The notes under the pieces are model-generated. The model searched no databases, was not told the DNA's origin, and saw only the letters and a list, made by a program, of their open reading frames with translations. Position numbers and translations under genes: made by a program. From positions 288,001 to 352,000 of the forward strand of contig JBEPZY010000001.1 of NCBI GenBank assembly GCA_041640595.1: a stretch of DNA of 64,000 nucleotides, read 5' to 3'. How positions within the stretch are numbered: the stretch's first letter is position 1; every line of letters begins with the position of its first letter. The stretch is from Gemmatales bacterium. GTDB taxonomy: Bacteria > Planctomycetota > Planctomycetia > Gemmatales > HRBIN36. Of the stretch, positions 29,904-53,195 are shown in pieces.

Positions 29904-32545
29904 TGAAACCGTGGCATGAGGTGGCTACTCCGCATCCGGATATTCGGGCGGGCAGGTTTGATGAATCGGTTTTTGCGGCGGATCTTGCCGATGTCCTTGC
30001 CGACCGGGGTCCTCTGGAATACCGCGATGCCGACACCTTCTTTCGCAAGACCTATCCGACGCAAGGGCTGGTGAAGCTGCTTTCGGCCGTTGCCTCGCGG
30101 CTGTCCGGTCGGGGAAAAGGCCCGGCGGTCATCCAGATCCAGACCCCCTTTGGCGGCGGCAAGACCCACAGCCTGATTGCGCTTTACCACCTGTTCAAAA
30201 ATCCCCAACGGCCAGCGGCCGCCTCCGAACTCATCTCGAAAGTTCTCGAAGATGCCCAGCTGGATGAGCTTCCGGTGGCGCGGGTGGCGACCTTCACCGG
30301 CACTGCGGCCGACCCGCTCACGCAAAAAACGCCCTGGGGCGAAATCGCCGACCAGTTGGGCAAGTATGCCCGGCTGGCCGAGCACGATCAGAAGCGGCGT
30401 GCTCCGGGCAAAAACCTGCTGCATCAGCTCCTGGCCGGCTCACCGACGCTCTTGTTGATGGATGAGGTCGCAGAGTACGCCGCCAAGGCCAAAGACTTCC
30501 GCGAGCAGGTGAACGCCTTTTTCCAGGAACTGACCGAAACAGTCAAGGTCTTGCCGCAGTGTGCCCTCGTGGTGACGCTTCCTTCCAGCGCTCCTTACGG
30601 CGAAGAAGGCGAACGGGCACTCTACCAGCTGGGGCAGATCTTCGGTCGAATGGAGGCTATCTACGTACCGGTTGAAGGCGAGGAGATTTACGAGATCATC
30701 CGTCGCAGGCTTTTTGAAAATTCGCCCGACCCCGTTGAGGTCCGCAAGGTAGCGGATAGTTATTGGGAGATGTACAGACGGCTTGGGGATGATCTGCCGC
30801 ACGATGTGCGCGAAACTTCCTATCGCGACAAACTGCGCAAGGCTTACCCTTTTCATCCGGAGTTGATTGACCTGTTGTTAGAACGTTGGAGCACCTTCCC
30901 CAGCTTCCAGCGTACCCGTGGTGTGTTGCGTTTGCTGGCCGAAATCGTGGCAGACCTTTACCGCCGCGACCACAGTGCACCGCTCATCCAGCCGGCTCAC
31001 GTCAATCTCAACAATTCGGTCATCCGAAGCGAACTACTCAAACACATTGGCAACCAGTATGAAGGCGTCATTACCGCCGACATCGCCGGTGGCAACGCCA
31101 AAGCGCAGAGGATCGACCGCGAGATCGGTTCCGAATACGACCGCTTCAACGTAGCCAGCGGACTGGCCACCGCCATCTTTTTCGCTTCGTTCAGCGGAAG
31201 CGAGAAAAAAGGGGTGAGTGTGCAACGGCTACGCCTGGCGTTGTTACGCGAGAGTATCCCCCCGGCCGTGGTTGGCGATGCGCTTAGACGACTGGAAGAA
31301 GAACTCTGGTATCTGCATGTGGAAGGCGGATTTTACTCCTTCTCCAGTCAGCCCAACCTCAACCGCATTCTGGTAGAGAAGGAAGAGGCGGTCGGGGATG
31401 AGCTTATCACCGAAGAAATTCGTACCCGCCTGGAAAAGCTCGCCGGCAGCGATTTGCGTGTGACGCTCTGGCCCAAAGCCTCACAGGATGTGCCCGATAC
31501 AAAAGAACTGAAACTGGCCATCCTGTCACCGGAGCACTCAAAACAAAGTTGCACGACCCAGGATTTTGTGGATGAGCTTTTGAAAAAAACTGGCAGCACT
31601 TTCCGCACCTATCAGAACACGCTCCTGGTTCTCGCTGCTGACAACGACGAGTTTTCCTCTCTACGTCAGAAGGTCAAACGCTGGCTGGCTCTCCGCGCTA
31701 TTCGCGACGACAAAAAGCTCAACCGCCAGCTCTCGGAAGATAACAGGAAAACACTGGACAGCAAATGGAGAGATTTAGATAGCGCAATACCTTTCAGTCT
31801 GCTTTCGGCGTATCGGCATCTGGCAAAACCTGGTGAAAACGGTGCGGAGTGGTGCGATCTGGGCTTACCTACCACTGGCGCGAAAGAGTCGCTGGCCAGC
31901 CGGGTACGCGAGTTCCTCAGAAGCCAGGATTACTTGCTGGAACACCTCTCGCCTGCCCATCTCCTCAAAAAGGCAGTCCGTCCGGAAGAACACGAAAAGC
32001 CGGTATCCGAGATCGTGGAGGCCTTTTTGCGCTACCCGCAACTGCCGATGATTCAAAGCCCAGCGGTGATCGAGCAAGCCTTGAGCAAGGGAGCACAGGA
32101 AGGGATTTTTACCGTCCGGATTGGCGACCGCGTGTATTTCCAAGAATCACCGCCTGCATCCATTCTCGGTACCGACGCAGTATTGGTTCGCAAAGAACGA
32201 GTTGAGTCACCTCCCGCTGATCGCAAACCCGGACCAAGCCCCTCGCCGGATACGATTGCGGTTGGTCCTCAGCCCAGCGGGACGCCATCGGTTCGTACTC
32301 CACCGCCAGTGGATGGTGACCGGCGTCGTTTGACGCTCCGCGTCCGCGTACCCTGGGACAAACTTTCGGACTTTGTCCGCGGTGTCATCATGCCGCTACG
32401 CAACGATGGGGCCGAACTGCAAGTGGAAGTGCTCGTTCAGGCGCAGGCGACATCCGGCAGCATCAAACCGGCGACCCTGGAGCACAAGGTCAAAGAAACC
32501 ATCCGGCAAATCCATGCGGAAATTTTGGAGGAGACCTACGAATAA
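29900..32545 (+). CDS. DUF499 family ATPase (operon 2)
   Basis: TPFGGGKTH, LLLMDE, YPFHPEL, FQRTRG. Confidence 0.9.
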   Translation: MMKPWHEVATPHPDIRAGRFDESVFAADLADVLADRGPLEYRDADTFFRKTYPTQGLVKLLSAVASRLSGRGKGPAVIQIQTPFGGGKTHSLIALYHLFKNPQRPAAASELISKVLEDAQLDELPVARVATFTGTAADPLTQKTPWGEIADQLGKYARLAEHDQKRRAPGKNLLHQLLAGSPTLLLMDEVAEYAAKAKDFREQVNAFFQELTETVKVLPQCALVVTLPSSAPYGEEGERALYQLGQIFGRMEAIYVPVEGEEIYEIIRRRLFENSPDPVEVRKVADSYWEMYRRLGDDLPHDVRETSYRDKLRKAYPFHPELIDLLLERWSTFPSFQRTRGVLRLLAEIVADLYRRDHSAPLIQPAHVNLNNSVIRSELLKHIGNQYEGVITADIAGGNAKAQRIDREIGSEYDRFNVASGLATAIFFASFSGSEKKGVSVQRLRLALLRESIPPAVVGDALRRLEEELWYLHVEGGFYSFSSQPNLNRILVEKEEAVGDELITEEIRTRLEKLAGSDLRVTLWPKASQDVPDTKELKLAILSPEHSKQSCTTQDFVDELLKKTGSTFRTYQNTLLVLAADNDEFSSLRQKVKRWLALRAIRDDKKLNRQLSEDNRKTLDSKWRDLDSAIPFSLLSAYRHLAKPGENGAEWCDLGLPTTGAKESLASRVREFLRSQDYLLEHLSPAHLLKKAVRPEEHEKPVSEIVEAFLRYPQLPMIQSPAVIEQALSKGAQEGIFTVRIGDRVYFQESPPASILGTDAVLVRKERVESPPADRKPGPSPSPDTIAVGPQPSGTPSVRTPPPVDGDRRRLTLRVRVPWDKLSDFVRGVIMPLRNDGAELQVEVLVQAQATSGSIKPATLEHKVKETIRQIHAEILEETYE

Positions 32546-34812: not shown

Positions 34813-36633
34813 CTATTTCCCACCGAGATCGCGATACAACTTTTCTACCAGCTTCAGAAGTTCTTGCGGTTCGGCCAAATTGGGATAGTTATCCACGACC
34901 TCGAGTAAAATTTTTCTCGCACGCTGTAGGTGCCGCAGGGCTTCCTCGGTTTTTCCTTGAGTTGCGTAAAGAATACCCACTGCGCCTAGCACCCTGCCGA
35001 GGTCAACCTTGTACTCTACCACCTGGGGATGCTCGGCCACCAGTTGCTCGCGCAGTTGCAAGGCCTGGCGATGGGCTTTTTCCGCCTCGGCCACGCGACC
35101 GGTGGCTTTCAGCAACAGGCCCAGGTTGTTGTGCGTGGTGGCCAGTTGCTGGCGGTACTCGGGCACCTGGGGATGCTCAGCCACCAGTTGCTCGCGCAGT
35201 TGCAGGGCCTGGCGATGGGCTTTTTCCGCCTAGTCCGCTCGACCGGTGTCTTTCAGCAACACGCCCAGGTTGTTGTGCGTGGTGGCCAGCTCCTGGCGGT
35301 ATTCAGGCACCTGGGGATGCTCAGCCACCAGTTGCTCGCGCAGTTGCAGGGCCTGGCGATAGGCTTTTTCCGCCTCGGCCACTCGACCGGTGGCTTCCAG
35401 CAACACGCCCAGGTTGTTGTGCGTGGTGGCCAGCTCCTGGCGGTATTTAGGCACCTGGGGATGCTCGGCCACCAGTCGCTCGCGCAGTTGCAGGGCCTGG
35501 CGATGGGCTTTTTCCGCGTCGGCCAGTCGACCGGTGACTTCCAGCAACAGGCCCAGGTTGTTGTGCATCCCAGCCAGTCCCTGGCGGTGCTGGGGCACCT
35601 GGGGATGCTCGGCCACCAGTTGCTCATAAAGTTGCAAGGCTTGGCGATACGCTTTTTCCGCCTCGGCCACTCGACCGGTGTCTTCCAGCAACAGGCCCAG
35701 GTTGTTGTGCGTGCTGGCCAGGTCCTGGCGGTATTCGGGCACCTGGGGATGCTCGGCCACCAGTCGCTCGCGCAGTTGCAGGGCTTGGCGAAAGGCTTTT
35801 TCCGCCTCGGCCACGCGACCGGTGGCTCGCAGCAACACGCCCAGGTTGTTGTGCGTGGTGGCCAGTTCCCGGCGGTGCTCGGGCACCTGGGGATGCTCGG
35901 CCACCAGTCGCTCGCGCAGTTGCAGGGCCTGGCGAAAGGCTTTTTCCGCCTCGTCCGCCCGACCGGTGGCTACCAGCGACACGCCCAGGTCGTTGTGCGT
36001 GCTGGCCAGGTCCTGGTGGTACTCGGGCACCTGGGGATGCTCGGCCACCAGACGCTCTTGCAGTTGTAAGGCTTGGCGATGGGCTTTTTCCGCGTCGGCC
36101 AGTCGACCGGTGGCTTGCAGCAACAGGCCCAGGTTGTTGTGCGTCATGGCCAGTTGCTGGCGGTACTGGGGCACCTGGAGATGCTCGGCCACCAGTTGCT
36201 CGCGCAGTTGCAAGGCTTGGCGATAGGCTTTTCCCGCCTCGGTCACTCGACCGGTGGCTTGCAGCAACGCGCCCAGGTTGTAGTGCGTGGCGGCCAGCTC
36301 CTGGCGGTATTTAGGCACCTGGGGATGCTCGGCCACCAGACGCTCGCGCAGTTGTAAGGCTTGGCGATGGGCTTTTTCCGCCTCGGCCACTCGGCCGGTG
36401 GTTTCCAGCAAGATGCCCAGGTTGTAGTGCGTTCTGCCCAGTTCCTGGCGGTACTCGGTCACCTGGGGATGCTCGGCCACCAGTCGCTCGCGCAGTTGCA
36501 GGGCCTGGCGATAGGCTTTTTCCGCCTCGGCCAGTCGACCGGTGGCTTGCAGCAAGTTGCCCAGGTTGTTGTGCGTGCTGGCCAGTTCCTGGCGGTATTC
36601 AGGCACCTGCGGATGCTCGGCCACCAGTTGCTC
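34813..36633 (-). pseudogene. TPR array (48-aa/144-bp units, ~11-12) lacking an N-terminus, with internal TAG
   Basis: ORFs 35230-36624 and 34813-35184 share a frame; TAG at 35230-35232 where a sister repeat has GAG; begins mid-repeat at the kinase stop. Confidence 0.85.
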
Positions 36634-39223
36634 ACTTCAAGTCGGCGATATACCACACGCGCACCGTCTTATCAGCACTCCCCGACACGAAACTGCGGCC
36701 GTCCGGCGTCACCGTTACGCTGGTGACCCGATCTTGGTGGCCAGAGAACCGCCGCACTTCTTTCCCCCTCGCCAAGTCCCACAAACGCACCGTTTTGTCC
36801 TCGCTTCCCGAAACGATGTATTTGCCATCGGGCGTCACCGCGACGCTACTGACCCCGCTCTCGTGCCCCGTGAACCGCCGCACTTCTTCCCCCGTCGCAA
36901 GCTGCCACAAACGCACCGTTTTGTCCTCGCTTCCCGAAACGATGTATTTGCCATCGGGCGTCACCGCGACGCTACTGACCCCGCTCTCGTGCCCCGTGAA
37001 CCGCCGCACTTCTTTCCCCGTCGCCAGGTCCCACAAACGCACCGTTTTGTCCCAGCTTCCCGAAACGACGTATTTGCCATCGGGCGTCACCGCGACGCTA
37101 CTGACCCCGCTCTCGTGCCCCGTGAACCGCCGCACCTCTTGCTCCGTCAACAACAGCGCCCACAAACGCCACAAACGCACGGTTTTGTCGCCGCTTCCCG
37201 AAACGACGCATTTGCCATCGGGCGTCACGGCGACACTCCAGACCGAACCCGCGTGCCCCGTGAACCGCTGCACTTCTTTCCCCGTCGCCAGGTCCCACAA
37301 ACGCACGGTCTGATCCGTGCTTCCCGAAACGACGTATTTGCCATCGGGCGTCACGGCGACGCTCAAGACCGGATTCTGGTGCCCCGTGAAACTGCGGACT
37401 TCCTCGGCACTGGCCAGGTCCCAGACGCGCAGCGTCATGTCCGAACTCCCTGACACTGCATGGCGTCCATCAGGGGTTACCGCAACGCAATTTACGGCGC
37501 GTTCGTGTCCGATCAGTCGCGTGCCTCGAGACTCTTGTAGCGCTAACCACAATAGCCTCTCTGCGTCGGCTAGCCTTCTTTCTGATTCAAGCAGCCTTCT
37601 CTGCATTAGAACCAGCCTTGTCTCTGTTTCATCTAACCTTCGCAGGAGATCGTGAGAAATCTGCTCTGCTTGTAGACGTAATTTGCGGGTAGATTCTAAT
37701 TCCTTAGCCAAGGACAGAACGCGTTCTCTTTCTGCTGCTAGCTGCTTTCGTGTTTCAGCTAATTCAAGAGCTAATTCCCGGCTAGCTTCTAATTCCTTCA
37801 CCAAAGACAGAACGCGTTCTTTCTCTGCCGCTAGCTGCTTTGTGATTTCAGCCGATTCGCGCTCCAATCGAAGAAGACGTTGTTCAGTGTCCCGTCGGTC
37901 CTCCTCCGTCTGCTTCAATTTCTCGTCCAAAGAGTCCAGGGCCGATGCCAGGTCGCGATTGGTCTGAGACAGCTGATGGTTCCTGGTGGCCAGCAGCAGG
38001 GAGAAAGCAACGGTCAAAGTCAGCACGAGAATCATTGACACTGCAGCGGCACCGGCCAGCCTCCCTTGCCGCCGCAACCATCGCGCCAACCGCTGCCCCA
38101 GCGGCTCACGATAAACCGCCACCGGCTCATCCGCCAGCCAGCGTTTTACATCCGCTGCCAGCTGCTCAGCGGTGGCATAGCGCGCCTGCGGGTCGTCCGC
38201 CATCGCCTTGCGGCAAATCGCTTGCAGTGCCGCCGGTATCCACGGCTTCAGCTGCCGCGGTGGTTTAGCCGGCCGGCCCAGACAAAATGGAGGCTGTCCG
38301 GTTAGCAGGTGATACAGTGTCGCTCCCAGGAGAAACACATCGGTACGCTCGTCGGCCGGCTTACCATCCACCTGCTCCGGAGCCATGTAGGCTTCCGTGC
38401 CCAGTTTTGCTCCGAGTCGGGTGTGGTGATCGTCCGCACCGTCGGGCGGCTTGGCCGAATCCGGAAAACCAGCGTCGCCGTCCACCAATTTCCGCCGTGC
38501 TAATCCCCAATCGAGCACAATGGTCTCGCCGAACCGGCCCAGGATGATGTTGTTCGGTTTCAGGTCGCGATGGATGATGCCCCTGCTGTGGGCATACGCC
38601 ACCGTCTGGCACACCGCCACAAACCGCTGCAACAGTTCACGAAATTGCAGTTGCACTTTCGTCCGGCGGAAGTCGCGGACACTCTGGCAGCTTTCGTGCC
38701 AGGCGTGGATGGCCTGGTCGAACCTTTCACCTTCGACATACCGCATCACGTAGTAGAGCCGGCCATCCTGCTGCCCGCGCATCAACACCGGCACCACGCC
38801 GGGATGTTCCAGCAACGCGGTGATTTCCGCTTCCCGCTGGAAACGGGCTGGCAGAGTGGGTGTACGGGCAAACTTGATGGCCACCTTGCGATTGAGGACC
38901 AGGTCGTCGGCCAGGTACACCACTCCCATGCCGCCTTTGCCGATTTTTTTCACGGTGCGATACTGAGCCACCTGCATAACCTTTTCCGGCGGCGGCACCT
39001 CAGGCGGAGGCTCTCTCCCAGCTCCCGGCGGTTGCAGGGAATCTTCCTCGAGCGACGTAAGGGTGTCTTCTTTTTCGGAAGGCGTGGCGGCCTGGCGTGA
39101 CGCCTCCGACTGCTCATTAGGTGGGTTTCCCCCTGCTAACTTTTGCGACTCCGCAGGTGGCTGCGTGGATTGCTGGTCCTGGGGCCTGTGAAACTCACCC
39201 TGGGCTCCCGGTTGCGTAGCCAT
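36632..39223 (-). CDS. Ser/Thr protein kinase - TM - coiled coil - 7 WD40 repeats
   Basis: GKGGMG, VAIK, HRDLKPNN, DWG, YMAPE; GH...VAVTPDG...SGS.D.TVR.W x7. Confidence 0.93.
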   Translation of the reverse strand: MATQPGAQGEFHRPQDQQSTQPPAESQKLAGGNPPNEQSEASRQAATPSEKEDTLTSLEEDSLQPPGAGREPPPEVPPPEKVMQVAQYRTVKKIGKGGMGVVYLADDLVLNRKVAIKFARTPTLPARFQREAEITALLEHPGVVPVLMRGQQDGRLYYVMRYVEGERFDQAIHAWHESCQSVRDFRRTKVQLQFRELLQRFVAVCQTVAYAHSRGIIHRDLKPNNIILGRFGETIVLDWGLARRKLVDGDAGFPDSAKPPDGADDHHTRLGAKLGTEAYMAPEQVDGKPADERTDVFLLGATLYHLLTGQPPFCLGRPAKPPRQLKPWIPAALQAICRKAMADDPQARYATAEQLAADVKRWLADEPVAVYREPLGQRLARWLRRQGRLAGAAAVSMILVLTLTVAFSLLLATRNHQLSQTNRDLASALDSLDEKLKQTEEDRRDTEQRLLRLERESAEITKQLAAEKERVLSLVKELEASRELALELAETRKQLAAERERVLSLAKELESTRKLRLQAEQISHDLLRRLDETETRLVLMQRRLLESERRLADAERLLWLALQESRGTRLIGHERAVNCVAVTPDGRHAVSGSSDMTLRVWDLASAEEVRSFTGHQNPVLSVAVTPDGKYVVSGSTDQTVRLWDLATGKEVQRFTGHAGSVWSVAVTPDGKCVVSGSGDKTVRLWRLWALLLTEQEVRRFTGHESGVSSVAVTPDGKYVVSGSWDKTVRLWDLATGKEVRRFTGHESGVSSVAVTPDGKYIVSGSEDKTVRLWQLATGEEVRRFTGHESGVSSVAVTPDGKYIVSGSEDKTVRLWDLARGKEVRRFSGHQDRVTSVTVTPDGRSFVSGSADKTVRVWYIADLK

Positions 39224-39325
39224 GGTTCAGCCTCCGATGGAGATAACCTCGGCTGATGACCCGTCGCCTGCTACGTTTCGACTGGATTTTTATATACGGG
39301 CCGCCCTTCGGTGCCAGCCTATTGT

Positions 39326-39650
39326 CCACGGTGGGCTGACGCCCACCGCTCCTGGTTGTGTGTTCGCCAGTTGCCGAACAGCCCTTGATTTTCACCGCGC
39401 CGGGACGGTTTCACACACCACGGTGGGCTGACGCCCGCCGCTCCTGGTTGTGTGTTCGCCAGTCGCCGAACGGCCCTTGATTTTCACCGCGCCGGGACGG
39501 TTTCACACACCACGGTGGGTTGACGCCCGCCGCTCCTGGTTGTGTGTTCGCCAGTCGCCGAACGGCCCTTGATTTTCACCGCGCCGGGACGGTTTCACAC
39601 ACCACGGTGGGCTGACGCCCACCGCTCCTGGTTGTGTGTTCGCCAGTCGC
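39326..39650. repeat. 92-bp tandem repeat x3.5 with REP-like hairpin
   Basis: Units at 39326, 39418, 39510, 39602; GGTGGGC-TGAC-GCCCRCC palindrome. Confidence 0.92.
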
Positions 39651-39787
39651 AATTTGCAATCTGACGTTCACACCTGTGGCACTTAGCACAACTGGTCCAG
39701 ATCGAGTCCAGCGTTGCGTAGGACCGATTACAAATTGCCCAGGCACATTGCACTACGACGGCGGGCGGGACCAAAGACAATAACCCC

Positions 39788-40692
39788 ATGGTGCACGACG
39801 TTACAGGACAGCAATGGCCGCTCATCCACGTAGCGAGTAGTAAATGGCGAGTAGAAAGGTAGCCAACTAATCTTTCCGCCACCCAATACCCGTGGCCGAC
39901 CACACGCCGACGACCGCAAAACCCTCAATGGCATCCTCTAGGTGCTCCGTACCGGTTGTGCTTGGGAGGATATGCCCCGCTGTTATGGCAGTCCCATCAC
40001 CTGCTGGCGACGGCTGCGGAAGTGGCAAGAAGAAGGGGTCTGGGAAGGGATTGAGCGGGTGTTGTTAGCGAGCCTGGACGAACAGGGCAGGTTGGCCTGG
40101 CAACGGGCCTTTCTGGACGGCACGTTTGTGGCGGCAAAAAGGGGCGAAGCCGTGGGGCAGGTCAAGCGTGGCCAGGGCAGCAAGGTGATGGTGCTGGTGG
40201 ATGGTCAGGGATTGCTGTTGGGGACTATGGGGGCCAGTGCTCAGGAGGCAGAGGTGCATCTGACGGAAGCTACAGTGGAAACGGTTCGGATATAGCAGCA
40301 GCGCCGGCGCCTGTCTAAGCGAGCACGCGAGTTAATGTAGAAACCTTAGAACTGCGAGTTCGACACTTAGATTCATGCTCAGAAGCGGGTGCGGCAGTTG
40401 GTGGCGGACCGGGCATACGACAGCGATAGGTTGCGGGTTTGGCTTCGTCGGTGAGGGATTCGGCCCTGCATTCCGCGACGGTGAAATCGTCGTCAGTGGG
40501 GACGCTCGCCGGTGTTATCGGGGTATCGGGAGCGGTGGGTAGTGGAGCAACCGTGGTGGCGTTGGCGAAAGATCCGTGGTTGGTGGTATGTTAGGAGAAC
40601 TGGTGGTGCGTTATGAGCGGAAGGTGGAAATGTACCGTGCCTTTGTGCTCATAGCCTTCATTCTCATCTGCCTATGCGCATTTTTGAAATAG
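39788..40692 (+). pseudogene. IS5-family transposase pseudogene
   Basis: DDRKTLNGIL*VLRTGCAW, TCWRRLRKW, DGTFVAAK, ADRAYDSD, VRYER; several stops. Confidence 0.85.
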
Positions 40693-40696
40693 GTTT

Positions 40697-41960
40697 GCTC
40701 TGTCGAAAACATCTTGGCGCGTGGGGCAGGAAGAGTTGGGATGCTCGGTCGTCGGACACGACCACGACAGCTCCCGATGGAACCGCCACGAAGTGGGATT
40801 AGCTACGATGCTCGGTCATAGATGGACCAATCATTGTCGGTCTTTGTTGCAACGGGTCCTCCTGCCCCTTTCGGGGGCACCCAGTCATGGAAGGACCAAT
40901 CATTGTCGGTCTTTGCTGTAACGTCCACACTCATTAGCTAAAATGCTCACCATGGAAGGAACCCATTTGCTCTTGGCTGTAACCAGGATACAACCGGATG
41001 CGGAGAAAATTGCGTCGGACGCAATGACGCATTTGCTCTAAGCTGTAACCAGGATCTAGCTTGATAGCTTCATACGGATCCTTGACTTCCGGCGACGCAT
41101 TTGCTCTAGGCTGTAACTAGGATACACCGCGTCCCTGGCGTGTGATTGTCGAAATGACAAGACGCATTTGCTCTAAGCTGTAATTAGGATGGCCCTGGAA
41201 TTAGCCCAGCAGGTGTTGCCCCCGTATTCGCACCCCAAAAGCCCACACCAATTCACCCAGCCGCAGTTGCTGGCCTGCTTGATTGTGAAAGCCTACCTGC
41301 GACAGAGCTATCGGGGCATCGTCGAACTGTTGGCCCTGTCGGATGGTCTGCGGCGGGTGCGTCCGCAGCCGTTGGTGGCCGACGCGGGCTATGGTGCGGA
41401 ATGCGTGCACGAGTTTTGTCGAGAGCGGTGGCGGGTGAACAGTTGGATACCGTGGCAGCGTCTGGACGGAAAGGGTAAGTGCAATCACCGCCTGCGGCTT
41501 CGGCCAACCAGGCACCCCGCTGGCAGTGTCTGGTCGGAATGGCCAAGTGCAATCACACCGTTGGAGGGCGTGGTCAATGACCCATGTTCCGAGCTGGCAG
41601 CGTCTGACCGAAAAGGGCAAGTGCGAGGCCGCTGGCGTTCCCAGATGGGAGATGCCCAAGGTGTACCGTCAGCGTTGGCACGTGGAATCGTTCCTAAGTG
41701 AGCTGAAGCGAACCACCGGCTCGCAATTGACGGCGCGGCGGTAATGTTAAGCTTGGCAACCAGGCGCTACACTGTCAGCCACAGTTGGGGGCGCGGCGGG
41801 GAAAAAACTGTAGGAGGATGGTCATGTGCAGCGCCGGTGCTATACTGTCAGCCACAGCTGAGGAGGTGGCGGGAGTGGACGTTGAACAATGAAGTGGCAT
41901 TGCGGGTGGCGGCCTACGCCGTTAGTTTGCGCCCACACGCAACTATGTTTTCGACAGAGC
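40697..41960 (+). mobile_element. Decayed IS, copy B, with both terminal inverted repeats
   Basis: Perfect 15-bp IR GCTCTGTCGAAAACA / TGTTTTCGACAGAGC; YSHPKSPHQFTQPQLLACL, ADAGY, QRWHVES; central deletion and several inserts. Confidence 0.88.
40815..41190. CRISPR. CRISPR-like repeat-spacer array at the transposase start of IS copy B
   Basis: 30-bp GACGCATTTGCTCTAAGCTGTAACCAGGAT-type repeats at 40960, 41026, 41094, 41161 (spacers 36, 38, 37 bp) plus a 39-bp pair at 40815/40884. Confidence 0.65.
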
Positions 41961-42030
41961 AAAGCTTGTTCTCTCAAGGAGAGGCGCATATAAAAGGGCC
42001 AAAAGGTAACAACAGAAGAAAGGTGTTCCT

Positions 42031-43053
42031 ATGCGCTCAGAGTCGCCCTTTCGGACCAAGTCTCTTCGGTTACTGGGGCTGGGGATTCTGGTTGCAGTTA
42101 TTGACTGTCTTCTGCTCGTGAGCGCCCTCCGTGAAAGGCATTTCGCTGGCATTGTCCTGGCGCTGCTGGCCAGTCTGGCTGCTGTCGGCCTGGTATGGCT
42201 GCTTTGGAGAGAAACGCGTGCAGGACTGGTTCAGCGTGCAACTTCCGAAAGCAGAGAGAGCCAGAAGACAACTCCAGGTGCCGAAGTATCTTCTCCCTCC
42301 TTGACGTCTGCAGAAGGTCCGGTCCCAGGTCTGGCAAATACTCCGTCTGTCCCCACGGAGCCCGAAGGCTTCGTCGCCGTTCGCACTGCACAAGCTGAAA
42401 GCCCTGCAAGCACTTCCGTTCCTTCCAGGGAACAACCTGAAGCGTATGCCGATCAGCCGAGTCCTGGGGCGGAAAAAGCCTTGCCCACAATCCAACCCGG
42501 TATTCCCCCACTGACGGCCGACCCGCTGGACAATCGCCCCTGGGTAAAACTGGTTGAGGAAGTGGTCGAGCTGTTCGACGAAATAGAAAGCATACACCCG
42601 CGCCTGCATCCCCCGGCACAGGAACTGGCCAAGCACCTGAAAGATAGGCTGGTGGAAATTCTGGAGCGTAATCAGGTAGAAATTCTCCACAAAGGGGAGA
42701 TCGGCGTGCGCTTCAACAGAGCGCGCCACCAGCCAGCGATGCCTCCTGCGGATGCCGAACTCGCCGTGGTTGCGGAGGTGCTGAGTCCGGGCTTCGTTGT
42801 AGGTCGGCGTGTGTTGCGCCGGGCACACGTGCGTCTGGCTTCGGCAGGGGATCTTGAGGCTCCTGTCAAGAGCCAATCATCTCTTGCACCTCCTTCTCAG
42901 CCGGGAACCCGATTTTCTCAGAGTACCTCCGCCGCATCTGGAGGAGGTGCGTTGGAAGGCCAGCCGGTTCCTCCACTTGACCCTGGCAGAGAGCCGCTGT
43001 CACCGAATCCGGAACGAAGTCGTTTTGAGGAGAGGGAACCAAACCCACAATAA
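42031..43053 (+). CDS. Membrane-anchored GrpE-like protein
   Basis: Two TM segments, Pro/Ser linker, then FNRARHQ...EVLSPGF..GRRVLRRAHV resembling the GrpE head. Confidence 0.7.
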   Translation: MRSESPFRTKSLRLLGLGILVAVIDCLLLVSALRERHFAGIVLALLASLAAVGLVWLLWRETRAGLVQRATSESRESQKTTPGAEVSSPSLTSAEGPVPGLANTPSVPTEPEGFVAVRTAQAESPASTSVPSREQPEAYADQPSPGAEKALPTIQPGIPPLTADPLDNRPWVKLVEEVVELFDEIESIHPRLHPPAQELAKHLKDRLVEILERNQVEILHKGEIGVRFNRARHQPAMPPADAELAVVAEVLSPGFVVGRRVLRRAHVRLASAGDLEAPVKSQSSLAPPSQPGTRFSQSTSAASGGGALEGQPVPPLDPGREPLSPNPERSRFEEREPNPQ

Positions 43054-43070
43054 AACACAAGGAGAACATC

Positions 43071-45008
43071 ATGGCCGCTACTGCTGACCTGCTTGCTCAG
43101 ACGGAACGATTGCGTCGTCAGACTCTGGACCTTTTGAGCCAGATGGAGGAACACGGGCAGCGATTGGGACTGCCGCCCTTTCCCGATGTGTTGCAGATGT
43201 GTCGGGAGAAACTGCAAGAAAATATCTATCGCGTCCTGGTTGTTGGCGAGGCCAAGCGCGGCAAAAGTTCCTTCATCAACGCGTTGCTAGGCCGGGACCT
43301 GCTGCCCGTTGATGTGGATGTGGCCACGTGTCAGGTCTTTCGCATTCGCCGGGCAGCACAAGAGGCATACCGCCTGCGATTTGAAGACGACTCGGAGCAA
43401 GTCATCCGTGCCGAAGACCTGCCCCGTTATGGTTCCCAGGTGCTGGCTGACCTAAATGAAATCCCGCGTCTGGATCAGATCATTCGCTGGATTGAGGTGG
43501 ATGTACCTGCGCCATTTCTGCCGCCCAATTTATGGTTGCTGGATACTCCGGGACTGGGCTCGCTGTATGCGTTTCATGCGCGGATCACTTATCGTTTTGT
43601 CCCGGAGTGTGATGGGGTTGTGTATGTGCTCGATTCGCAGGCACCGATCAGCCAGCCAGAGTTGCAGTTTATCGAGGACCTGCTGAAGGTGACGAATCAT
43701 CTGTTTTTCATCCAGACCAAGATAGACCTTTTCGATCAGGATACCTGGCAAAAGATACTGCAGCGCAACGAGGATATTCTGCGACAGCGATTTGGCGACC
43801 AATTGGGCCAGGTGCGCGTGTGGCCGGTTTCTAACCAGTTGTTACGTAAGGCCTCGGAAACTCAGGATGAAGATTATCTTGAGGCCAGCAAATATAAAGA
43901 ACTGTCAGAAGCCTTGCAGTTGTTCTTGTACCGCATCGCCGGTCTGGTCAAGACCAGGGCGACCGCTGCTTTAGGGATAGAGCATCACCGTTCCTGCCAG
44001 CAGGTGTTGCAGCAGCGCCTGGATAACCTGAAGATGGAGTCCAAAGAGAAACAGAAGGAGTTGCACCAGCAGTTGCGCAAACTTCGGGAGCAGATGGAGA
44101 CCGACTGCGGGCCGCATGGCCAGAAGCGTCGTGAATTTCTGGAAAAGGTTCAGCAAGTCTGCAACGCAGGTCGGCAACACATTCATCAAGAATTGCAAAA
44201 AATACTCTCCGATTACCAGCGTAAAGTAGAGCAATTACCTCTGGAGGAAGTCGAAAAAGAGGGATCCACTATCTTCAATGAGATGGTAACGGAAGTCAGT
44301 GATCTTTGGAAACGCACAGTGAGCGACACTCAGCAAAAGCTAGCTCAGCATCTAGGAGAGTTCATCGTTTCCTTGCCTGCGGGGCCCGTACTTTCCACGG
44401 TTGATTCAGCATCTCCTCCAGTGAGGGACACTAATAAGTTTAGTGAGATAATGAGTGATGTCGGTAAAGTGATGAAAGGAGCAGGCATGGGTGCACTAGT
44501 CGGCGCGGCAGCTTTTCTGGGTGCCAATGTGATTCTTGCCACCGGTTTCTTCGCCACTATAGGTGCCTTGATATCAGGACTGCTGGGCATCAAATCTGCT
44601 GCTGCATTTGGGAGTATAGTTGGCGGCCTTGGTAGCCTTTGGAACTTGTTCAAAGGCAAGAAAGCCAAACTCGAAGCGGCAAAACAAGAATTACGAGCAC
44701 GCTTGGACAGGGCATGGAATCAGATTCATTACCATTATCTCGGCCCATCTGGGGCGGTAGAGCAATCTTTCGAGATGTTAAAAAACCAGGCGGAGGAGCA
44801 GATTGATAAACTGGTGCAACAAGAATTGCAGCAGAGAGAGGCTGAGATTCAGCGGTTGGAAAAGGATGCGCAGCTGCAGGAGCGGGCTCGCAGGGAAAGG
44901 GTCCAGGAAGTGCGCCAGCAACTGGCCGATTGGGATAAATTGGGTCAAGAGTTGCAGAATGTCCAGAACGAACTGCACGGACTGGAAAAGATACTGGCCG
45001 CTGCTTGA
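43071..45008 (+). CDS. Bacterial dynamin-like GTPase with membrane paddle
   Basis: GEAKRGKSS, DTPG, TKID; Gly-rich hydrophobic segment and coiled coils. Confidence 0.88.
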   Translation: MAATADLLAQTERLRRQTLDLLSQMEEHGQRLGLPPFPDVLQMCREKLQENIYRVLVVGEAKRGKSSFINALLGRDLLPVDVDVATCQVFRIRRAAQEAYRLRFEDDSEQVIRAEDLPRYGSQVLADLNEIPRLDQIIRWIEVDVPAPFLPPNLWLLDTPGLGSLYAFHARITYRFVPECDGVVYVLDSQAPISQPELQFIEDLLKVTNHLFFIQTKIDLFDQDTWQKILQRNEDILRQRFGDQLGQVRVWPVSNQLLRKASETQDEDYLEASKYKELSEALQLFLYRIAGLVKTRATAALGIEHHRSCQQVLQQRLDNLKMESKEKQKELHQQLRKLREQMETDCGPHGQKRREFLEKVQQVCNAGRQHIHQELQKILSDYQRKVEQLPLEEVEKEGSTIFNEMVTEVSDLWKRTVSDTQQKLAQHLGEFIVSLPAGPVLSTVDSASPPVRDTNKFSEIMSDVGKVMKGAGMGALVGAAAFLGANVILATGFFATIGALISGLLGIKSAAAFGSIVGGLGSLWNLFKGKKAKLEAAKQELRARLDRAWNQIHYHYLGPSGAVEQSFEMLKNQAEEQIDKLVQQELQQREAEIQRLEKDAQLQERARRERVQEVRQQLADWDKLGQELQNVQNELHGLEKILAAA

Positions 45009-45115
45009 AAGGCCCGTGAGATGAAAAACACCCGGTCTCAAAGGAAAAGACCGCGAAAGTAGGACCGTCTTCAGGGCAAAAGAGCGAAGCCTGGTTTCCA
45101 AAGAGGGCTGAGACC

Positions 45116-47296
45116 ATGAAGAAGGAACCTGTCTTGGGAATTGATTTTGGCACGACCTACAGCAGCATGGCGTGGTTTAATCCGCAGACGGGCCGGGCGG
45201 AAGTGCTCCGCAATGCAGAAGGAGAAGAAAAGACGCCATCGGTAGTTTATTATGGGGATAAGGAAGTAGTGGTGGGCAAGGTGGCAGAATACTACGTGGA
45301 GGATCCCCAGGCGTGCAAGCGGGTTCTTCGAGCAGTCAAACGACACTTGGCGGAGGACACCCGGTACGCGGTGGGTTCACGACAGGTTCGGCCGGTGCAA
45401 GCGGCGGCGGAGATTTTGCGGAAGCTGAAGCAGGATGCCGAAGGAGGACATTTTCGCCGGGAGGTGCAGCGGGTGGTGTTGACGCATCCTGCCGTTTTCG
45501 ACGAAGTGGAGAAGGAACGTCTGCGCGAAGCAGCACGGCTGGCCGGTTTTGCGGAGGTGGTGCTGCTGGAGGAACCGGTAGCGGCCGCGCTGGCTTATCT
45601 GGCAGCAGGTGTGGGGCCGGTTGAGCAGGGAATTCTCGTTTATGATCTGGGAGGGGGTACGTTTGATTTGACGCTGGTGGTGCCTGACGAGGGTCCTGCG
45701 GGTTTTCGTGTGGCGTTGCCGCCCAGGGGATCACGTATCGGCGGGGAAGATTTCGACCGTGCGATCTATGATGATTTCGACAATTTCGTGCGGCAGTATG
45801 GAGCTTCTCTTGGGAAAGACGGTTTGAACCTAGCGTTCTTGAAACGATGCCAGAAATATAAGGAGAATCTGTCCGTGGTGGAGGAGCCGGCAGCGCCCCT
45901 GGGATGGTTCTGGAGCGAAGGGCGCGAGTTGATAAGCCGGAGCATGACGCGCCGGGATTTCGAGCGATTAATCAATGCGCATGTTGAGGATACGGTGAAG
46001 CTAACCAGACAGTTGCTTCGAGAGGCAAACAAGAAGGGTCTGCAAGCTAAGCATGTGCTTTTGATCGGGGGGTCGTCGCGGATTCCTTTGATCCAGCGGC
46101 GTCTGAAAGAGGAATTGCAGACGGAGCCATTGGTTTGGGAGCAGCGGGATATTGCAGTGGCTCTGGGAGCAGCGATTTATGGGGCACGCTATGATCAGAA
46201 AACAAATTGCACAAATCCAGCTGCTATCCGGGAACATCGTCTCGATGAGAAAGGCCCATCCCTTGGGGAGTTAGTACAGCGTGCCAGGGACGGGGACGTA
46301 ATCATCATTCCGGCGGGGGACTGGTATCTGCGCCAGGGAGTAATCATAGACAAGCCGTTGGTGTTGCGAGGGGAGGGAAGAGAACATAGCCGGCTGAGGT
46401 CGGAAGCCGAGGGGTATGTGCTGTGTTTTCAGGGGACAGGTCCGTGGCGGTTGGAGGGGTTGACGGTGGAACATGTAGGCAAGAGATGGGCGCATGTGGT
46501 AAAGGTGGAAGGGGGGCAGATCGAGATACGGGATTGTGTCTGCCGGGGCGGGGTGTGGGACGAGTCGAACAGCAGAGGCGGTTTAGGGATATGGCTTCGA
46601 GGTGGCGCACGGGGTGTTATATCAGGGTGTATTTGTGGGCCGAACGGTCTGCATGGGATCGGGGTGAGTGGTCAGGCGCAGGCGCAATTGGAAGCCAACA
46701 CCTGTAACAACAACCAACAATGTGGTATTGTTTACTGTGAATCTGCCGAGGGCACGGCGCGGCAGAATATCTGCCGGCACAATGGCCTGCATGGCATCGG
46801 GGTTCAGGGACAGGCGCAGCCGCACCTGGAGGACAACACCTGCGAGAACAACCAGCAATGCGGCATTTTGTATTCAGATTCTGCCTGGGGCACGGCACGG
46901 TATAATGTCTGCCGGCAGAATGGCTATCATGGCATCGGGGTTCGGAGACACGCGCAGCCCAAATTGGAAAGCAACACCTGCGACTGCAACCAGCGATGCG
47001 GCATTATGTACCTTGAGTCCGCCAGGGGCGTGGCGTGGCACAATATCTGCCGCCAGAATGGCAATCATGGCATCGGGGTTCAGGGTCAGGCACAGCCGCA
47101 ATTGGAAAGCAACGCCTGCGAGAACAACCAGCAAGACGGAATTCGTTACTTCGACTTTGCCGGCGGGCATGCGCGGCAAAACACCTGTTCAGGCAATCGG
47201 CAGTATGGCATCTATGTAGCTTCCACGGCAAAGCCTGTGCTGGACGCCAATAACTGCTACGAAAACCTTAGCAGGAACATTTTTAACGAAGCGTAG
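45116..47296 (+). CDS. Hsp70 ATPase domain fused to a right-handed beta-helix
   Basis: GIDFGTT, EEPVAAA, DLGGGTFD, GGEDFD, GGSSRIP; then repeats N.C..N...GI. Confidence 0.88.
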   Translation: MKKEPVLGIDFGTTYSSMAWFNPQTGRAEVLRNAEGEEKTPSVVYYGDKEVVVGKVAEYYVEDPQACKRVLRAVKRHLAEDTRYAVGSRQVRPVQAAAEILRKLKQDAEGGHFRREVQRVVLTHPAVFDEVEKERLREAARLAGFAEVVLLEEPVAAALAYLAAGVGPVEQGILVYDLGGGTFDLTLVVPDEGPAGFRVALPPRGSRIGGEDFDRAIYDDFDNFVRQYGASLGKDGLNLAFLKRCQKYKENLSVVEEPAAPLGWFWSEGRELISRSMTRRDFERLINAHVEDTVKLTRQLLREANKKGLQAKHVLLIGGSSRIPLIQRRLKEELQTEPLVWEQRDIAVALGAAIYGARYDQKTNCTNPAAIREHRLDEKGPSLGELVQRARDGDVIIIPAGDWYLRQGVIIDKPLVLRGEGREHSRLRSEAEGYVLCFQGTGPWRLEGLTVEHVGKRWAHVVKVEGGQIEIRDCVCRGGVWDESNSRGGLGIWLRGGARGVISGCICGPNGLHGIGVSGQAQAQLEANTCNNNQQCGIVYCESAEGTARQNICRHNGLHGIGVQGQAQPHLEDNTCENNQQCGILYSDSAWGTARYNVCRQNGYHGIGVRRHAQPKLESNTCDCNQRCGIMYLESARGVAWHNICRQNGNHGIGVQGQAQPQLESNACENNQQDGIRYFDFAGGHARQNTCSGNRQYGIYVASTAKPVLDANNCYENLSRNIFNEA

Positions 47297-47413
47297 AACG
47301 GAGAACGGTGCGCTGATATTTGATAGCGCATGTGCCTGGAAAAACTAAGCTCGCAAAGCATCGAGCCCTGCGACGAGGATAACACTTAGTGTGATAAGTC
47401 AAAGGTGATAGAT

Positions 47414-49138
47414 ATGGATAGCTTCCAGAGCCAGCTAGAGAAATTGTTGCGGCGCAGCGCTGAGCAGTTGCGGCAGGTAAGATTGCCGGAGACCCTGGCG
47501 GATTATCCGGACCGTCTGGAAAGACTGGCAGAGCAGGTGTACCACCCCTGTACTCTGGCAGTTGTGGGCCGGGCCAAGGCCGGCAAGAGCACGTTCATCA
47601 ATGCTTTTCTGGAAGACGACCTGGCCAAAGTCGGCGTCACGGAAACGACGGCCACCCTCAACTTCTTTCGCTATGGAAATCCTCCGGACCCAGCACGTCC
47701 CATCCGCTGCTTCTGGCGCAATGGCCAGGATGAGTACGTCGATCGACAATTCCTGGACAGCCTGCAAGGACATGCTCCGGAAATCGTGCAGCGGGCTGCG
47801 CAAATTGATCATCTGGAATATCTCCTGCCCCATCCCAGTCTCAGGGAAGTGACGCTGGTGGATACTCCCGGCACCGAAGCGGCTGTGCTGGAACACCATG
47901 AACAGACCAAAGAGTTCCTCCAGTTGCGCCAGCAACACGCACAGGCCACGCGCCAGTGGGCCGAACGTGCCGATGCCGTGATTTATCTGGTTGGCCCTGT
48001 AGCCCGACTTACCGATCAGCAGTTGCTGGAGGAGTTTACTCAGGCGACCAGCGGGCAGGCACGGGCACTGAACGCCCTGGGAGTGCTGGCCAAAGTAGAT
48101 TTGCAACCGGAATTGCTACAGCGTCGCGAGCAATTGGCCGCCAAGATTGCTCAGCAACTGCGGGACAGTCTAAACACGGTGCTGCCTGTCTCCGCCGGTC
48201 TTCGCCGAGCTCTGGACCGGTTCCAGAAAGACAAGGACTCCTTCCGCAAGCTCCGCCAGCAACTCCAGCAGATTCCCGCCAAACTGCTGAGCAAACTCCT
48301 GGACAGTGAGGAACTTTACAAAAAGGATTATCCGGACTGTCCTGTGAGCGTTGCTGAGCGAATAGGTTTGCGCGGCGATATGCCTTGGGGCGTATTCACA
48401 ACCATCGCTCGTCTGGCCGCCGATGCCACCCTCACTGATGAAGAGGTATTGGAGAAGCTGGAGGAATGGTCTGGCTTTGGCCCCTTGAAAGAAGTGCTGG
48501 AGCAACACTTCTTCCGCCGCAGCAAGCTGCTGCGCTGCTTTAGCATTCTGCGCGAAGTCCGCACCTTGCTGGACGACCTGCGCTACAATTATCTGCCGCA
48601 ATTGCAAAAGAAAGACCAGCAGGACCAAGCCCTGTGCGAGCGTTACCAACTCCTGCTGCGCACCGTCCAGGAGCACGAGGCGGGCGATCTGGCAAGGCGA
48701 CTGCACTGGCCGGAGCGGGAAGTGCGCACGACGGTCAAAGAGTTAGTCGATCTCGTGAACCGCGTGATACCTACCGATCGGGCAGACCTCCTGAGCGCAC
48801 TGCTTCAGGACCTGGACCGGCAATTTAGCGAGCTATACCACAAACTGGAAGAGTACAACGCCGATTTTGAAGGTCTGCTGAAATTGGAAAAGAGACCTGA
48901 GTTCCTGACCGATGGAGAATGCGAGGAATTGCGCCGCTTGTTTGGCTTACACGGCTTAGACCCGGGTACCCGTCTGCCCCCAGATCTGCCGCCAGGGGAG
49001 AAACTGAGATACATACAAAGCCGCCAGGAATACTGGCGTGAAAGGCAGTGGCGGGGTCGGCAACCGGAACTCCAGCAGCTTGCAGAGCTGGCTGAACGGC
49101 GCTACGGCTGGTTGCTGGCCCAGGAGACAGCGCGCTGA
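47414..49138 (+). CDS. Second dynamin-like GTPase
   Basis: GRAKAGKST, DTPG, AKVD, PVSA; alternative GTG start at 47405. Confidence 0.85.
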   Translation: MDSFQSQLEKLLRRSAEQLRQVRLPETLADYPDRLERLAEQVYHPCTLAVVGRAKAGKSTFINAFLEDDLAKVGVTETTATLNFFRYGNPPDPARPIRCFWRNGQDEYVDRQFLDSLQGHAPEIVQRAAQIDHLEYLLPHPSLREVTLVDTPGTEAAVLEHHEQTKEFLQLRQQHAQATRQWAERADAVIYLVGPVARLTDQQLLEEFTQATSGQARALNALGVLAKVDLQPELLQRREQLAAKIAQQLRDSLNTVLPVSAGLRRALDRFQKDKDSFRKLRQQLQQIPAKLLSKLLDSEELYKKDYPDCPVSVAERIGLRGDMPWGVFTTIARLAADATLTDEEVLEKLEEWSGFGPLKEVLEQHFFRRSKLLRCFSILREVRTLLDDLRYNYLPQLQKKDQQDQALCERYQLLLRTVQEHEAGDLARRLHWPEREVRTTVKELVDLVNRVIPTDRADLLSALLQDLDRQFSELYHKLEEYNADFEGLLKLEKRPEFLTDGECEELRRLFGLHGLDPGTRLPPDLPPGEKLRYIQSRQEYWRERQWRGRQPELQQLAELAERRYGWLLAQETAR

Positions 49139-50483: not shown

Positions 50484-50663
50484 ATGCGGACATTGAGGAA
50501 TTGGTTGCGGCAGGGGCGGATTCCTTATCGCAAGGTGGGCCGAGTCGTGCTCATCCCAAAGAAAGCTCTAGAGGACTGGGCCAATAGCCACACGCTTGAA
50601 AATGGGAGCCAGGCAAGGATGTTCTCTGGGGAGTCCGACGGGCATTCGAATAGCAAGCCGTGA
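50484..50663 (+). CDS. Excisionase-like winged HTH, possibly N-truncated
   Basis: 59 aa MRTLRNWLRQGRIPYRKVGRVVLIPKKALEDW...; below the ORF-track cutoff; upstream of the integrase. Confidence 0.7.
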   Translation: MRTLRNWLRQGRIPYRKVGRVVLIPKKALEDWANSHTLENGSQARMFSGESDGHSNSKP

Positions 50664-51075: not shown

Positions 51076-52545
51076 GTGGCGAGCTTGGTGCGGGAAAGAA
51101 AAGGTGGCTATCGGATAGACTGGCTGGACCAGGAAGGGAAGCGGCATAGTTTGCGGTTGGGTATTGGCAATCGCAAGCTGGCCGAGCAAGTGCTGGCCCA
51201 TGTTGAAACCCTCATTGCTGCCCGCGAGATGAATGTGTCGCTGGACCGGGCAACGCAACTCTGGCTAGCAAGCATCGGGCCGGAGTTGCGAGCTCGACTT
51301 GAACGAGCAGGGTTAGTTGATTCACTGCCGCGAATACCGACATTGGCCGAGTTTGTGCAAGGCTACCTGACCCGGCGCGAACAAGACCTGAAGCCCCGTA
51401 CACTGGACAAACTGCGCGACACGGCCAGGAAACTATGCGAGTTTTTCGGGGAAAATTGTCCGCTGGACAAAATTACTTCGGGTCGGGCTCAGGATTGGGT
51501 GTGCTGGCTGCGCGAACGTGGCTATGCCCCGTACACGATTTACAAGTTCCTCGTGAAAGCTCGTGGCATTTTGCAAGATGCTGTGCAGCGTGAGTTGCTT
51601 GTGAAAAACCCACTGGCGGGTGTCAAGGTGCAGGCAAAACCGGATGAATCCCGCCGAGTGTTCATTACCCGCCAGGAAATTGCTCGCCTGCTGGCCGTGC
51701 TACCGCCGGTGTGGCGTACGGTAGTTGGTCTGGCGCGGTATGCCGGCTTGCGTTGTCCCAGTGAGGTGATGAGTCTGAAGTGGCAGCACATCCGCTGGGA
51801 ATCGGGCCTGATTACCGTGCCGCAACCCAAGCTGGAACATTTGCCGGGCAAGGCCTACCGCGTGGTGCCGCTTTTCCCGGAGGTCCGGGCGATTCTTGAG
51901 GAGGCTCGGAAGTTAGCCCCGGCGGATTCGGAATATGTGGTCTGGGAAGCTCGGCTCCGGGAAAGTGTCGTTACGAGCCGGGGCTGGCAAAACTGCAACC
52001 TGCGGACGGCGTTGTATCGTTACCTGCGGCGTGCAGGGCTGCCCTGCTGGCCGAAGCCGTTTGTCAACATGCGAAGCTCCCGGCAAACTGAACTGGCAGA
52101 GTTTTTCCCGGAGCACGTGGTTGCCGCTTGGCTGGGCAATTCGCCAACAGTGGCCCGTGCACACTACCTGCAAGTTACGGACGCTCATTTTCGCCAGGCC
52201 CAGGAACGAATCACCGCTCTCGAAAGCGAAAGTGGGCACGGCGATAGCAAAGGAAGTAAGCTGACAATTCCGTTTTGCTACTTGCGGACCGAGAGTTTAC
52301 GGACGCAGGCACAGGAAGGTCAAGGACAGACTCACGCGGAAGTAACACCAGAAAACCGTGCAGCAAAATCCGCAGCAATGCCGCAGCAAAATCCGCAGCT
52401 GCAGGAGACGGCAGCCAGCAGCAAACAGCGGAAAAATTCTCAGCAAGTTGCGGCAGATTGGGACATTGCGCCGTCAGGTGCCGCCTGGTGCCTCTTCGCA
52501 CCGGCGATCGCACTACCCCCGGCAGGACTCGAACCTGCAACCTAG
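51076..52545 (+). CDS. Tyrosine recombinase/integrase
   Basis: YAGLRCPSE, NMRSSR, WLGNS...AHY; GTG start after AAGGAG; 3' end overlaps the tRNA/att. Confidence 0.92.
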   Translation: MASLVRERKGGYRIDWLDQEGKRHSLRLGIGNRKLAEQVLAHVETLIAAREMNVSLDRATQLWLASIGPELRARLERAGLVDSLPRIPTLAEFVQGYLTRREQDLKPRTLDKLRDTARKLCEFFGENCPLDKITSGRAQDWVCWLRERGYAPYTIYKFLVKARGILQDAVQRELLVKNPLAGVKVQAKPDESRRVFITRQEIARLLAVLPPVWRTVVGLARYAGLRCPSEVMSLKWQHIRWESGLITVPQPKLEHLPGKAYRVVPLFPEVRAILEEARKLAPADSEYVVWEARLRESVVTSRGWQNCNLRTALYRYLRRAGLPCWPKPFVNMRSSRQTELAEFFPEHVVAAWLGNSPTVARAHYLQVTDAHFRQAQERITALESESGHGDSKGSKLTIPFCYLRTESLRTQAQEGQGQTHAEVTPENRAAKSAAMPQQNPQLQETAASSKQRKNSQQVAADWDIAPSGAAWCLFAPAIALPPAGLEPAT

Positions 52546-52587
52546 GGATTAGAAATCCCTTGCTCTATCCAGTTGAGCTACGGGGGC
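52514..52587 (-). tRNA. tRNA-Arg (anticodon UCU), CCA not encoded
   Basis: GCCCCCG acceptor, TAGCTCAACTGGATAGAGCA D-arm, AGGGA-TT-TCT-AA-TCCCT anticodon arm, GCAGGTTCGAGTCCTGC T-arm. Confidence 0.96.
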
Positions 52588-53195
52588 AATGTGGATGCCT
52601 TCCATCGCGTAGTGCTTGCCCTCTGCGGAGCCCAGGCCGCCAAGACTCTCAGCCGGGACGATGTAGATGCTTCCCATCGCGTAGTACTTGCCGGCCGTCA
52701 GGCGCAAGTCAGCAAGACTCCCTGTCGAGAGGCAAATGCAGATGCATCCGGTCGGCTAATGATAAGCCCTCGCCAGGGGCAGGCCAGCAAGGCTCCCAGT
52801 CGGGGGCGGTGTAGATGTATCCGGTCGCCTAGTGCTTGTCTCCTGCCAAGCCAGCAAGACTCTCAGTCGAGAGGCAATGGAGATATATCCGGTTGCCTAA
52901 TGATAAGCCCTCGCCAGGGGCAGGCCAGCAAGGCTCCCAGTCGGGGGCGGTGTAGATGTATCCGGTCGCCTAGTGCTTGTCTCCTGCCAAGCCAGCAAGA
53001 CTCTCAGTCGAGAGGCAATGGAGATATATCCGGTTGCCTAATGATAAGCCCTCGCCAGGGGCAGGCCAGCAAGGCTCCCAGTCGGGGGCGGTATAGATGT
53101 ATCCGGTCGCCTGGTGCTTGTATCCTGCCAAGCCAAGTCAGGAAGACTGCCAGTCGAGAGGCAATGTAGATGCATCCGCTCGGCTAATGCTTGCT
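52588..53195. repeat. 141-bp tandem repeat x3 built of ~70-bp subunits, with degenerate subunits reaching the tRNA 5' end
   Basis: TAATGATAAGCCCTCGCC... at 52757, 52898, 53039; related CAAGACTC..GGCAATG.AGATG subunits upstream. Confidence 0.88.

Follow-up and report, generated by a model that had tools for sequence, protein, structure and literature searches.

The window, the whole 64,000-nt stretch of a Gemmatales genome analysed here, contains a single tRNA gene, tRNA-Arg(TCT), and a 23-bp exact direct repeat (20112-20134 and 52512-52534) that corresponds to the 3' end of this tRNA up through the T-loop and bounds a 32.4-kb island. The layout is of the Islander type, with the intact tRNA at one end of the island and the displaced 3' fragment at the other. 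The features at the two island ends are the following:

20112..20134, plus strand: left att core, a displaced 23-bp 3' fragment of tRNA-Arg(TCT) that ends in the T-loop (exact repeat of 52512-52534; tRNA call)
20134..20388, plus strand: detached C-terminal tail of the integrase, 84 codons and TAA (74% identical paralogue on contig C4)
20179..20196, plus strand: P'-side arm-type repeat within the tail linker, at a distance of 44 bp from the core; putative integrase arm site
20272..20376, plus strand: two-helix hairpin of the tail (AlphaFold helices 2-18 and 21-36, mean pLDDT 90)
50484..50663, plus strand: excisionase-like HTH_17 ORF upstream of int, without the first 15 profile positions, that is, the first helix (PF12728, E 1.5e-9, profile 16-50 of 51)
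51076..52545, plus strand: integrated form of the tyrosine integrase (489 aa), with the catalytic Tyr364 at 52165 and, from there to the core, a linker of 115 codons free of stops
52360-52377 and 52383-52399, plus strand: two putative P-side arm-type repeats, in the coding linker of the integrase
52512..52534, plus strand: right att core, through which the integrase frame passes (exact repeat)
52513..52588, minus strand: tRNA-Arg(TCT), the target gene, convergent with int (ARAGORN)

The integrase ORF starts with GTG, preceded by an AAGGAG site, and its product matches PF13102 (SAM-like; E 9.8e-9) and PF00589 (E 9.1e-6; at 26 bits, just below the cut-off of 27.1, which relatives of this integrase pass). 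The catalytic residues R226, K252, R333 and Y364 are all located upstream of the core, which lies at least 115 codons farther on. The histidine position of the HxxR motif is occupied by Val330 (His in 101 and Val in 4 of 120 homologues), and the second histidine position by Asn355, which is typical of the family (113 of 120). An in-frame stop is found just upstream of the HTH_17 ORF, which is possibly an excisionase remnant.

The integrase frame crosses the core as LPPAGLE and stops three residues on, within the tRNA antisense. Joining 52534 to 20135, as in the excised circle, extends the protein to 570 aa, with 84 codons past the Glu and TAA at 20386-20388. Both of these frames had been described in the earlier note, along with the upstream position of the catalytic motifs, by which both forms keep the catalytic core, and the contrast with split integrases of the SSV1 type; each of these points is borne out, the att core following 115 codons after Tyr364. 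From the start of the left core, the integrase frame is open for 91 codons and the other two frames for 65 and 17. An open frame of 84 codons alone is not far beyond chance in DNA with 57% GC, so that the case rests on comparative tests. Among the matches listed for contigs from four runs against positions 50300-53000, the attP join of the island was not found; such contigs drop rare forms. A loose contig end at 52399 belongs to a left-end contig, matching the arm repeat, and the loose ends at which left-flank letters precede 52512 (X1) and 52505 (X2) may represent empty sites or left-end contigs. The RNA run X8 may contain DNA and is therefore no evidence of transcription.

Judging from domain content, the cargo of the island appears to be defence-like, and includes the following:

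21634..32545, plus strand: Hma-type defence cluster, with HmaA, an HmaB split in two by a nucleotidyltransferase-HEPN cassette, and HmaC (Pfam, PADLOC)
35230..49138, strand unassigned: TPR protein, kinase-WD40, GrpE-like protein, two dynamin-like proteins and Hsp70-beta-helix protein (Pfam, PADLOC)

The halves of HmaB (DUF1156 methylase) occupy 25702-27393 and 28623-29903, and the cassette between them has the order nucleotidyltransferase-HEPN-nucleotidyltransferase. The GrpE-like, dynamin-like, Hsp70-beta-helix and second dynamin-like genes form one run (42031-49138) with weak matches to LeoA/LeoBC, a possible defence module. No phage structural or conjugation families were detected among the 28 window proteins scanned. 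Just beyond the left att site, a second, paralogous Hma cluster (9275-19031), possibly an older island at the same site, includes a methylase ORF with 14-nt pyrimidine/purine tandem repeats. Tandem arrays of 75-nt and 141-nt units border the island on both host sides (19496-20041 and 52735-53157).

The whole 4.45-Mb genome has just three copies of a 17-bp repeat from which the peptide AAKSAA derives, at 20179, 52360 and 52383. By analogy with the anatomy of lambda-type attP, we infer that these repeats are arm-type sites; the whole attP, consisting of the P arm, the T-loop core and the P' arm, would then lie inside the 3' end of a lambda-type integrase gene, in a stop-free, protein-neutral linker. 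The two arms share a direct word of 8-22 nt in 26 paired elements of the family (6-10 nt in the inverted control); in each of the 26 concordant elements, its copies lie roughly 100-190 bp ahead of the core and 34-97 bp behind it.

Homologues of the integrase are present in 138 of the 267 genomes of the order, and the named loci are nearly all from Planctomycetota. The 241 loci analysed include 240 with a catalytic end and 149 with a convergent tRNA. In these 149, the region from the catalytic tyrosine to the tRNA is open in the integrase frame in 136 (median, 66 codons), compared with 17 and 20 for the control frames. After clustering at 70% identity, the respective counts are 92, 11 and 16 of 101, and in a separate, earlier locus set, 24, 5 and 2 of 26. 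At least 14 tRNA types are targeted across the family, in islands as well as in viral contigs.

The earlier note had proposed a state-dependent C-terminal tail, with an open frame past the att site that should be conserved in homologous islands, and both were found; in the note's reading, the tail may control directionality or stability. In 30 two-ended elements, both att copies were mapped by the DNA repeat alone, and 26 of these carry an in-frame helical hairpin of approximately 30 aa past the left core; the natural full-length proteins and the selection on the hairpin described below agree with this result. The exceptions are L128, L129, L218 and L226, two of which have a broken integrase frame. 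Fourteen of the 30 pairs had been chosen via a tail-profile hit; among those chosen otherwise, with the window excluded, 12 of 15 conform. The profile used for scoring hairpins was trained partly on the tails scored, and a profile made only from the window, C4 and four database proteins gave identical frame calls for the elements common to both. For ten picked loci, the script found no att pair, the far end lying probably beyond the fetched DNA in five; L197, L209 and L215, with diverged or truncated cores, look in register by eye and were left uncounted. In L207 and L221, the integrase and the hairpin are adjacent and out of frame. C4 was excluded from the pair count as it matched on the arm repeat and has a broken right core.

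Across the family, the T-loop is crossed in all three registers. Of the 28 elements that have a hairpin in one of the frames, 26 show the same register on the two sides of the core (19 in register 1, 6 in register 2 and 1 in register 0), compared with a permutation mean of 16.1 (p=2e-5, kinship ignored). On a quick tree of 25 integrases, from which L219 was omitted as too short, the five register-2 rows require 5 changes (shuffled mean, 4.7). This scatter on the integrase tree indicates that register shifts were compensated repeatedly. As no register can shift without changes that compensate for it on either side of the core, such a pattern is expected only with selection on the fused frame.

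Contig C4 of the genome that contains the window encodes an integrase with 39% identity, which keeps to the same register as far as a broken core; 3.4 kb upstream of its start, a core fragment is followed by a tail with 74% identity. Between the window and C4, the hairpin codons differ by 8 synonymous changes and 4 that are non-synonymous (dN/dS 0.17, p=0.004), and the linker by 6 synonymous and 21 non-synonymous ones (dN/dS 1.06). The tail stop is kept as TAA or TAG, and the similarity ends directly past it. By this codon comparison, the hairpin is under purifying selection. The same genome also contains C4-type remnants that lack an integrase, located at three tRNA-Val genes, where the frame is still held open into the core, and at one tRNA with a CAT anticodon; the remnant on C3 is a unit of about 0.9 kb with both ends:

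G000 C2:26050-26500, C5:76280-76750, C9:74740-75200 and C3:146780-147850: integrase-less C4-type remnants

The hairpin motif of the family is DPxL...AWPxLP...R..I, of which the window hairpin is a divergent, Trp-less variant; similar variants are also found in the full-length proteins P0334 and P0335. Similarity of the window hairpin to the family is weak (5.6 bits against a profile built without it, a score reached by 2 of 1000 shuffles). A single-sequence search with the window tail matched only its own genome (1 of 267), a tail profile matched 174 of 267 genomes at E≤0.01, and a hairpin-only profile matched 50 of 301 genomes of the phylum at E≤1e-5, with the own genome below that cut-off. 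A region search with the tail of P0034 returned only itself, and viral scans with tail proteins gave nothing useful. Pfam contained no family for the tail or the ORF antisense to it, and no family shared over the 73 hairpin members described below; the PDB sequence search with the tail gave nothing under E 0.09, Foldseek gave no match to the hairpin, and the Atlas search gave only unnamed Planctomycetota clusters, under 0.9. A homodimer prediction for the hairpin, with a score of 0.09, speaks neither for nor against pairing.

Proteins in which the integrase and the hairpin are naturally joined were detected as well. Among the first 120 homologues, 4 run through a core-like peptide into the hairpin. 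Viral contigs carry 7 distinct one-ORF integrase-plus-hairpin genes without a nearby tRNA and 6 tRNA-linked integrases, whereas the corresponding numbers for genome contigs are 0 and 70 (Fisher p=4e-7); none of the 80 genome loci encodes an integrase-plus-hairpin protein. Thirty of the 43 distinct viral-contig integrases fall in neither class, some being cut by contig ends. Several lack the hairpin and end 14-39 residues past the Tyr, so that the hairpin does not occur throughout the family. The viral members of this subgroup, which does not share the design and has neither the hairpin in the ORF nor an adjacent tRNA, are L149, L155, L157-L159, L161, L162, L164, L177, L191 and L192. In a targeted search, 73 of the best 120 long proteins (65 clusters at 70%; median length of the 73, 497 aa) had the hairpin in the last 90 residues; some database full-length proteins could be junctions of tandem islands rather than free elements. 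A model of one viral full-length form is folded to about residue 375, disordered at 388-457, and forms the hairpin at 463-491 with a pLDDT of 93-97. The modelled full-length member has an N-terminal three-strand domain resembling an arm-binding domain, followed by core-binding and catalytic domains, and its best Foldseek match is lambda Int (1z1b, E 1.9e-11).

Taken together, we regard it as nearly certain that the fusion of the integrase with the hairpin is real and selected. By the sequence, integration at the tRNA cuts int past the catalytic domain and swaps the linker and hairpin for a few tRNA-antisense residues (three in the window), and excision, or an incoming free element, restores them. 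The hairpin may be a protein-interaction module, probably for self-association, which would make the free-state integrase efficient at attP x attB. Integration would then turn the enzyme down, serving as its own off-switch, and the island would be stabilised until an excisionase acts. The hairpin form is made by free or incoming elements alone, so that the most plausible role of the module is to favour integration; we give an even chance to the reading, drawn from sequence comparison, that its job would be to raise integrase activity or to bias it toward integration. A bolder version, possible and put forward tentatively, is that the hairpin is a built-in directionality domain, a portable module beyond attP that is attached and removed by recombination itself, across Planctomycetota and possibly in more than one integrase subfamily (L324, see below). 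If so, this directionality module would be an integration-promoting counterpart of the excisionase, switched by gene rearrangement, not by transcription.

An unlikely but serious alternative is that the hairpin sets the stability of the free-state integrase, either as a protective folded cap or as a degradation signal that limits the enzyme. Under the cap version, the integrated form would have a long end that is disordered and prone to proteolysis, and this form indeed ends in a predicted disordered linker followed by unconserved antisense residues. Hairpins of the NblA type are among the weak fold matches (Z 4.2-4.7), and in mycobacteriophage BPs, integration reportedly removes a C-terminal degradation tag from the repressor, which counts for this explanation. 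A terminal tag similar to that of ssrA is argued against by the last two residues, which are unconserved across the 73 full-length forms (commonest pair, 3 of 73), and the conservation is instead concentrated in the hydrophobic faces of the two helices.

A shade less probable, we believe, is that the hairpin binds a partner, such as an excisionase, a repressor of the element or an architectural protein of the host, and thereby, in the free element, prevents re-excision or links integration to regulation. The HTH_17 gene upstream of int would fit this explanation, as would the best fold match of the hairpin, to the C-terminal domain of CapH, a regulator (Z 5.5, rmsd 0.7 over 35 residues, below the reliability line of the tool), and the match to the dimerisation domain of TP901-1 CI (Z 3.8); however, fold matches with Z under 8 may reflect merely a common arrangement.

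It is very improbable that the island end carries the hairpin as a small gene of its own, fused only incidentally on excision. The hairpin profile matches 12,120 clusters (50% identity) at E≤0.001, gene callers annotate these as small proteins, and among the best 150 clusters (median 78 aa, none over 300), 102 begin with Met; the six clusters that were looked up are unnamed or 'hypothetical'. However, among 46 tails with an upstream T-loop motif, the motif is in the same open frame in 45, no in-frame ATG occurs between the core and the hairpin in 44, and 30 have no ATG, GTG or TTG there; in the window tail, none of these codons is found in frame before codon 54, nor upstream back to the previous stop. 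Given the motif in frame and the missing ATG, the short hairpin proteins are best read as detached ends, and the co-variation of registers and the natural fused proteins, both unexpected for a separate gene, largely refute this explanation.

It is hardly credible that the open frame merely results from DNA constraints on attP, or from the antisense ORF at 20079-20402, with no function as protein. In favour of this notion, the linker is protein-neutral by its dN/dS, and the antisense frame, which has wobble positions in common with the tail, stays open across 63 of 73 hairpins; but the antisense ATG is not kept in the C4 paralogue and it is the sense frame that has a stop at a median of 5 residues past the hairpin and is fused to the integrase in viral contigs.

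The integrase-hairpin fusion has a known precedent in Myxococcus phage Mx8, where, according to the accessible parts of the sources, attP lies inside int and integration gives int a new 3' end, with the activity changed, not abolished (PMC6070905, PMC4383910). As in Mx8, attP of the planctomycete elements is in the 3' end of a tyrosine integrase gene, past the catalytic Tyr, and the C-terminus is rewritten with the catalytic domain kept. The primary papers on the Mx8 integrase are reportedly Tojo 1996 and Magrini 1999. The spacing is similar too: Mx8 Int has 63 residues from the Tyr to a GLE core peptide and 113 after it, near the median of 66 codons in the planctomycete family. The sequences are barely similar, however: Mx8 Int shows 23% identity across 149 residues of the N-terminal part (E 0.01), and the Mx8 tail scores at best 3.4 bits with the hairpin profiles, in a match outside the tail, so that the tails are unrelated by profile. 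Mx8 is absent from the seven phage records that match at E≤1e-5. In contrast to this single phage, the planctomycete integrases form a large family with at least 14 tRNA types as targets, in islands and viral contigs, and with three registers.

The 'suicidal' archaeal integrases of SSV1, pTN3 and pT26-2, in which, in the accessible part of the source, the split parts Int(N) from the catalytic Int(C) (PMC8371274), likewise have the recombination site within the integrase gene and tRNA targets, and the state of the gene is set by integration. In the planctomycete integrase, by contrast, one ORF keeps all domains through Tyr364, and only the accessory tail is detached; Mx8 is the closer precedent. 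Heterobivalent integrases such as lambda Int and Tn1549 Int resemble the family in the direct-repeat arm-type sites that flank the core, and the model of a relative matches lambda Int. The lambda int gene ends before attP. The planctomycete integrases differ from the lambda type in an extension of 110-150 residues that contains attP and the hairpin, and in the Asn at the second His position. No description of this integrase family or of the hairpin was found in the accessible text of mainly open-access literature, supplements aside, including PMC5861418, PMC13626063 and PMC12884075. The principle is known from Mx8; what appears to be new, on the present comparison of genomes, is a family-wide design with a distinct conserved domain.

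What had been a curiosity of one phage would thereby become a large natural family, in which the swappable domain is defined and folded and which offers many independent test systems. The orphan 'hypothetical proteins' of the 12,120 clusters would be explained as detached integrase ends, a reading for which the context was checked in the fetched loci only. The hairpin profile flags the left ends of islands in fragmented genomes. Integrases cloned from planctomycete chromosomes would come in the truncated form, and this may be relevant to integrase-mining pipelines. A review states, in its accessible part, that recombinases interrupting the gene that encodes them occur only in archaea (PMC8371274); the planctomycete family and Mx8 qualify this statement as it appears there, though the catalytic domain stays whole.

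Several loci with unusual arrangements were observed in the course of the survey. At L027:2774-4059, a family integrase lies directly next to 12 arrayed tRNA genes and targets the terminal tRNA-Trp. In P0064, the linker of a family integrase runs into an excisionase-like HTH_17 domain in place of the tRNA antisense or the hairpin. In L324:5293-5919 (minus strand), the C-terminal end of a different type of tyrosine integrase, frameshifted upstream, reads into the same hairpin, and the core is longer, reaching the anticodon arm. In L327 (G199:C14, near 55500-56800, minus strand), a neighbouring ORF with, by eye, a serine-recombinase C-terminus continues in frame through the left core into the hairpin tail.
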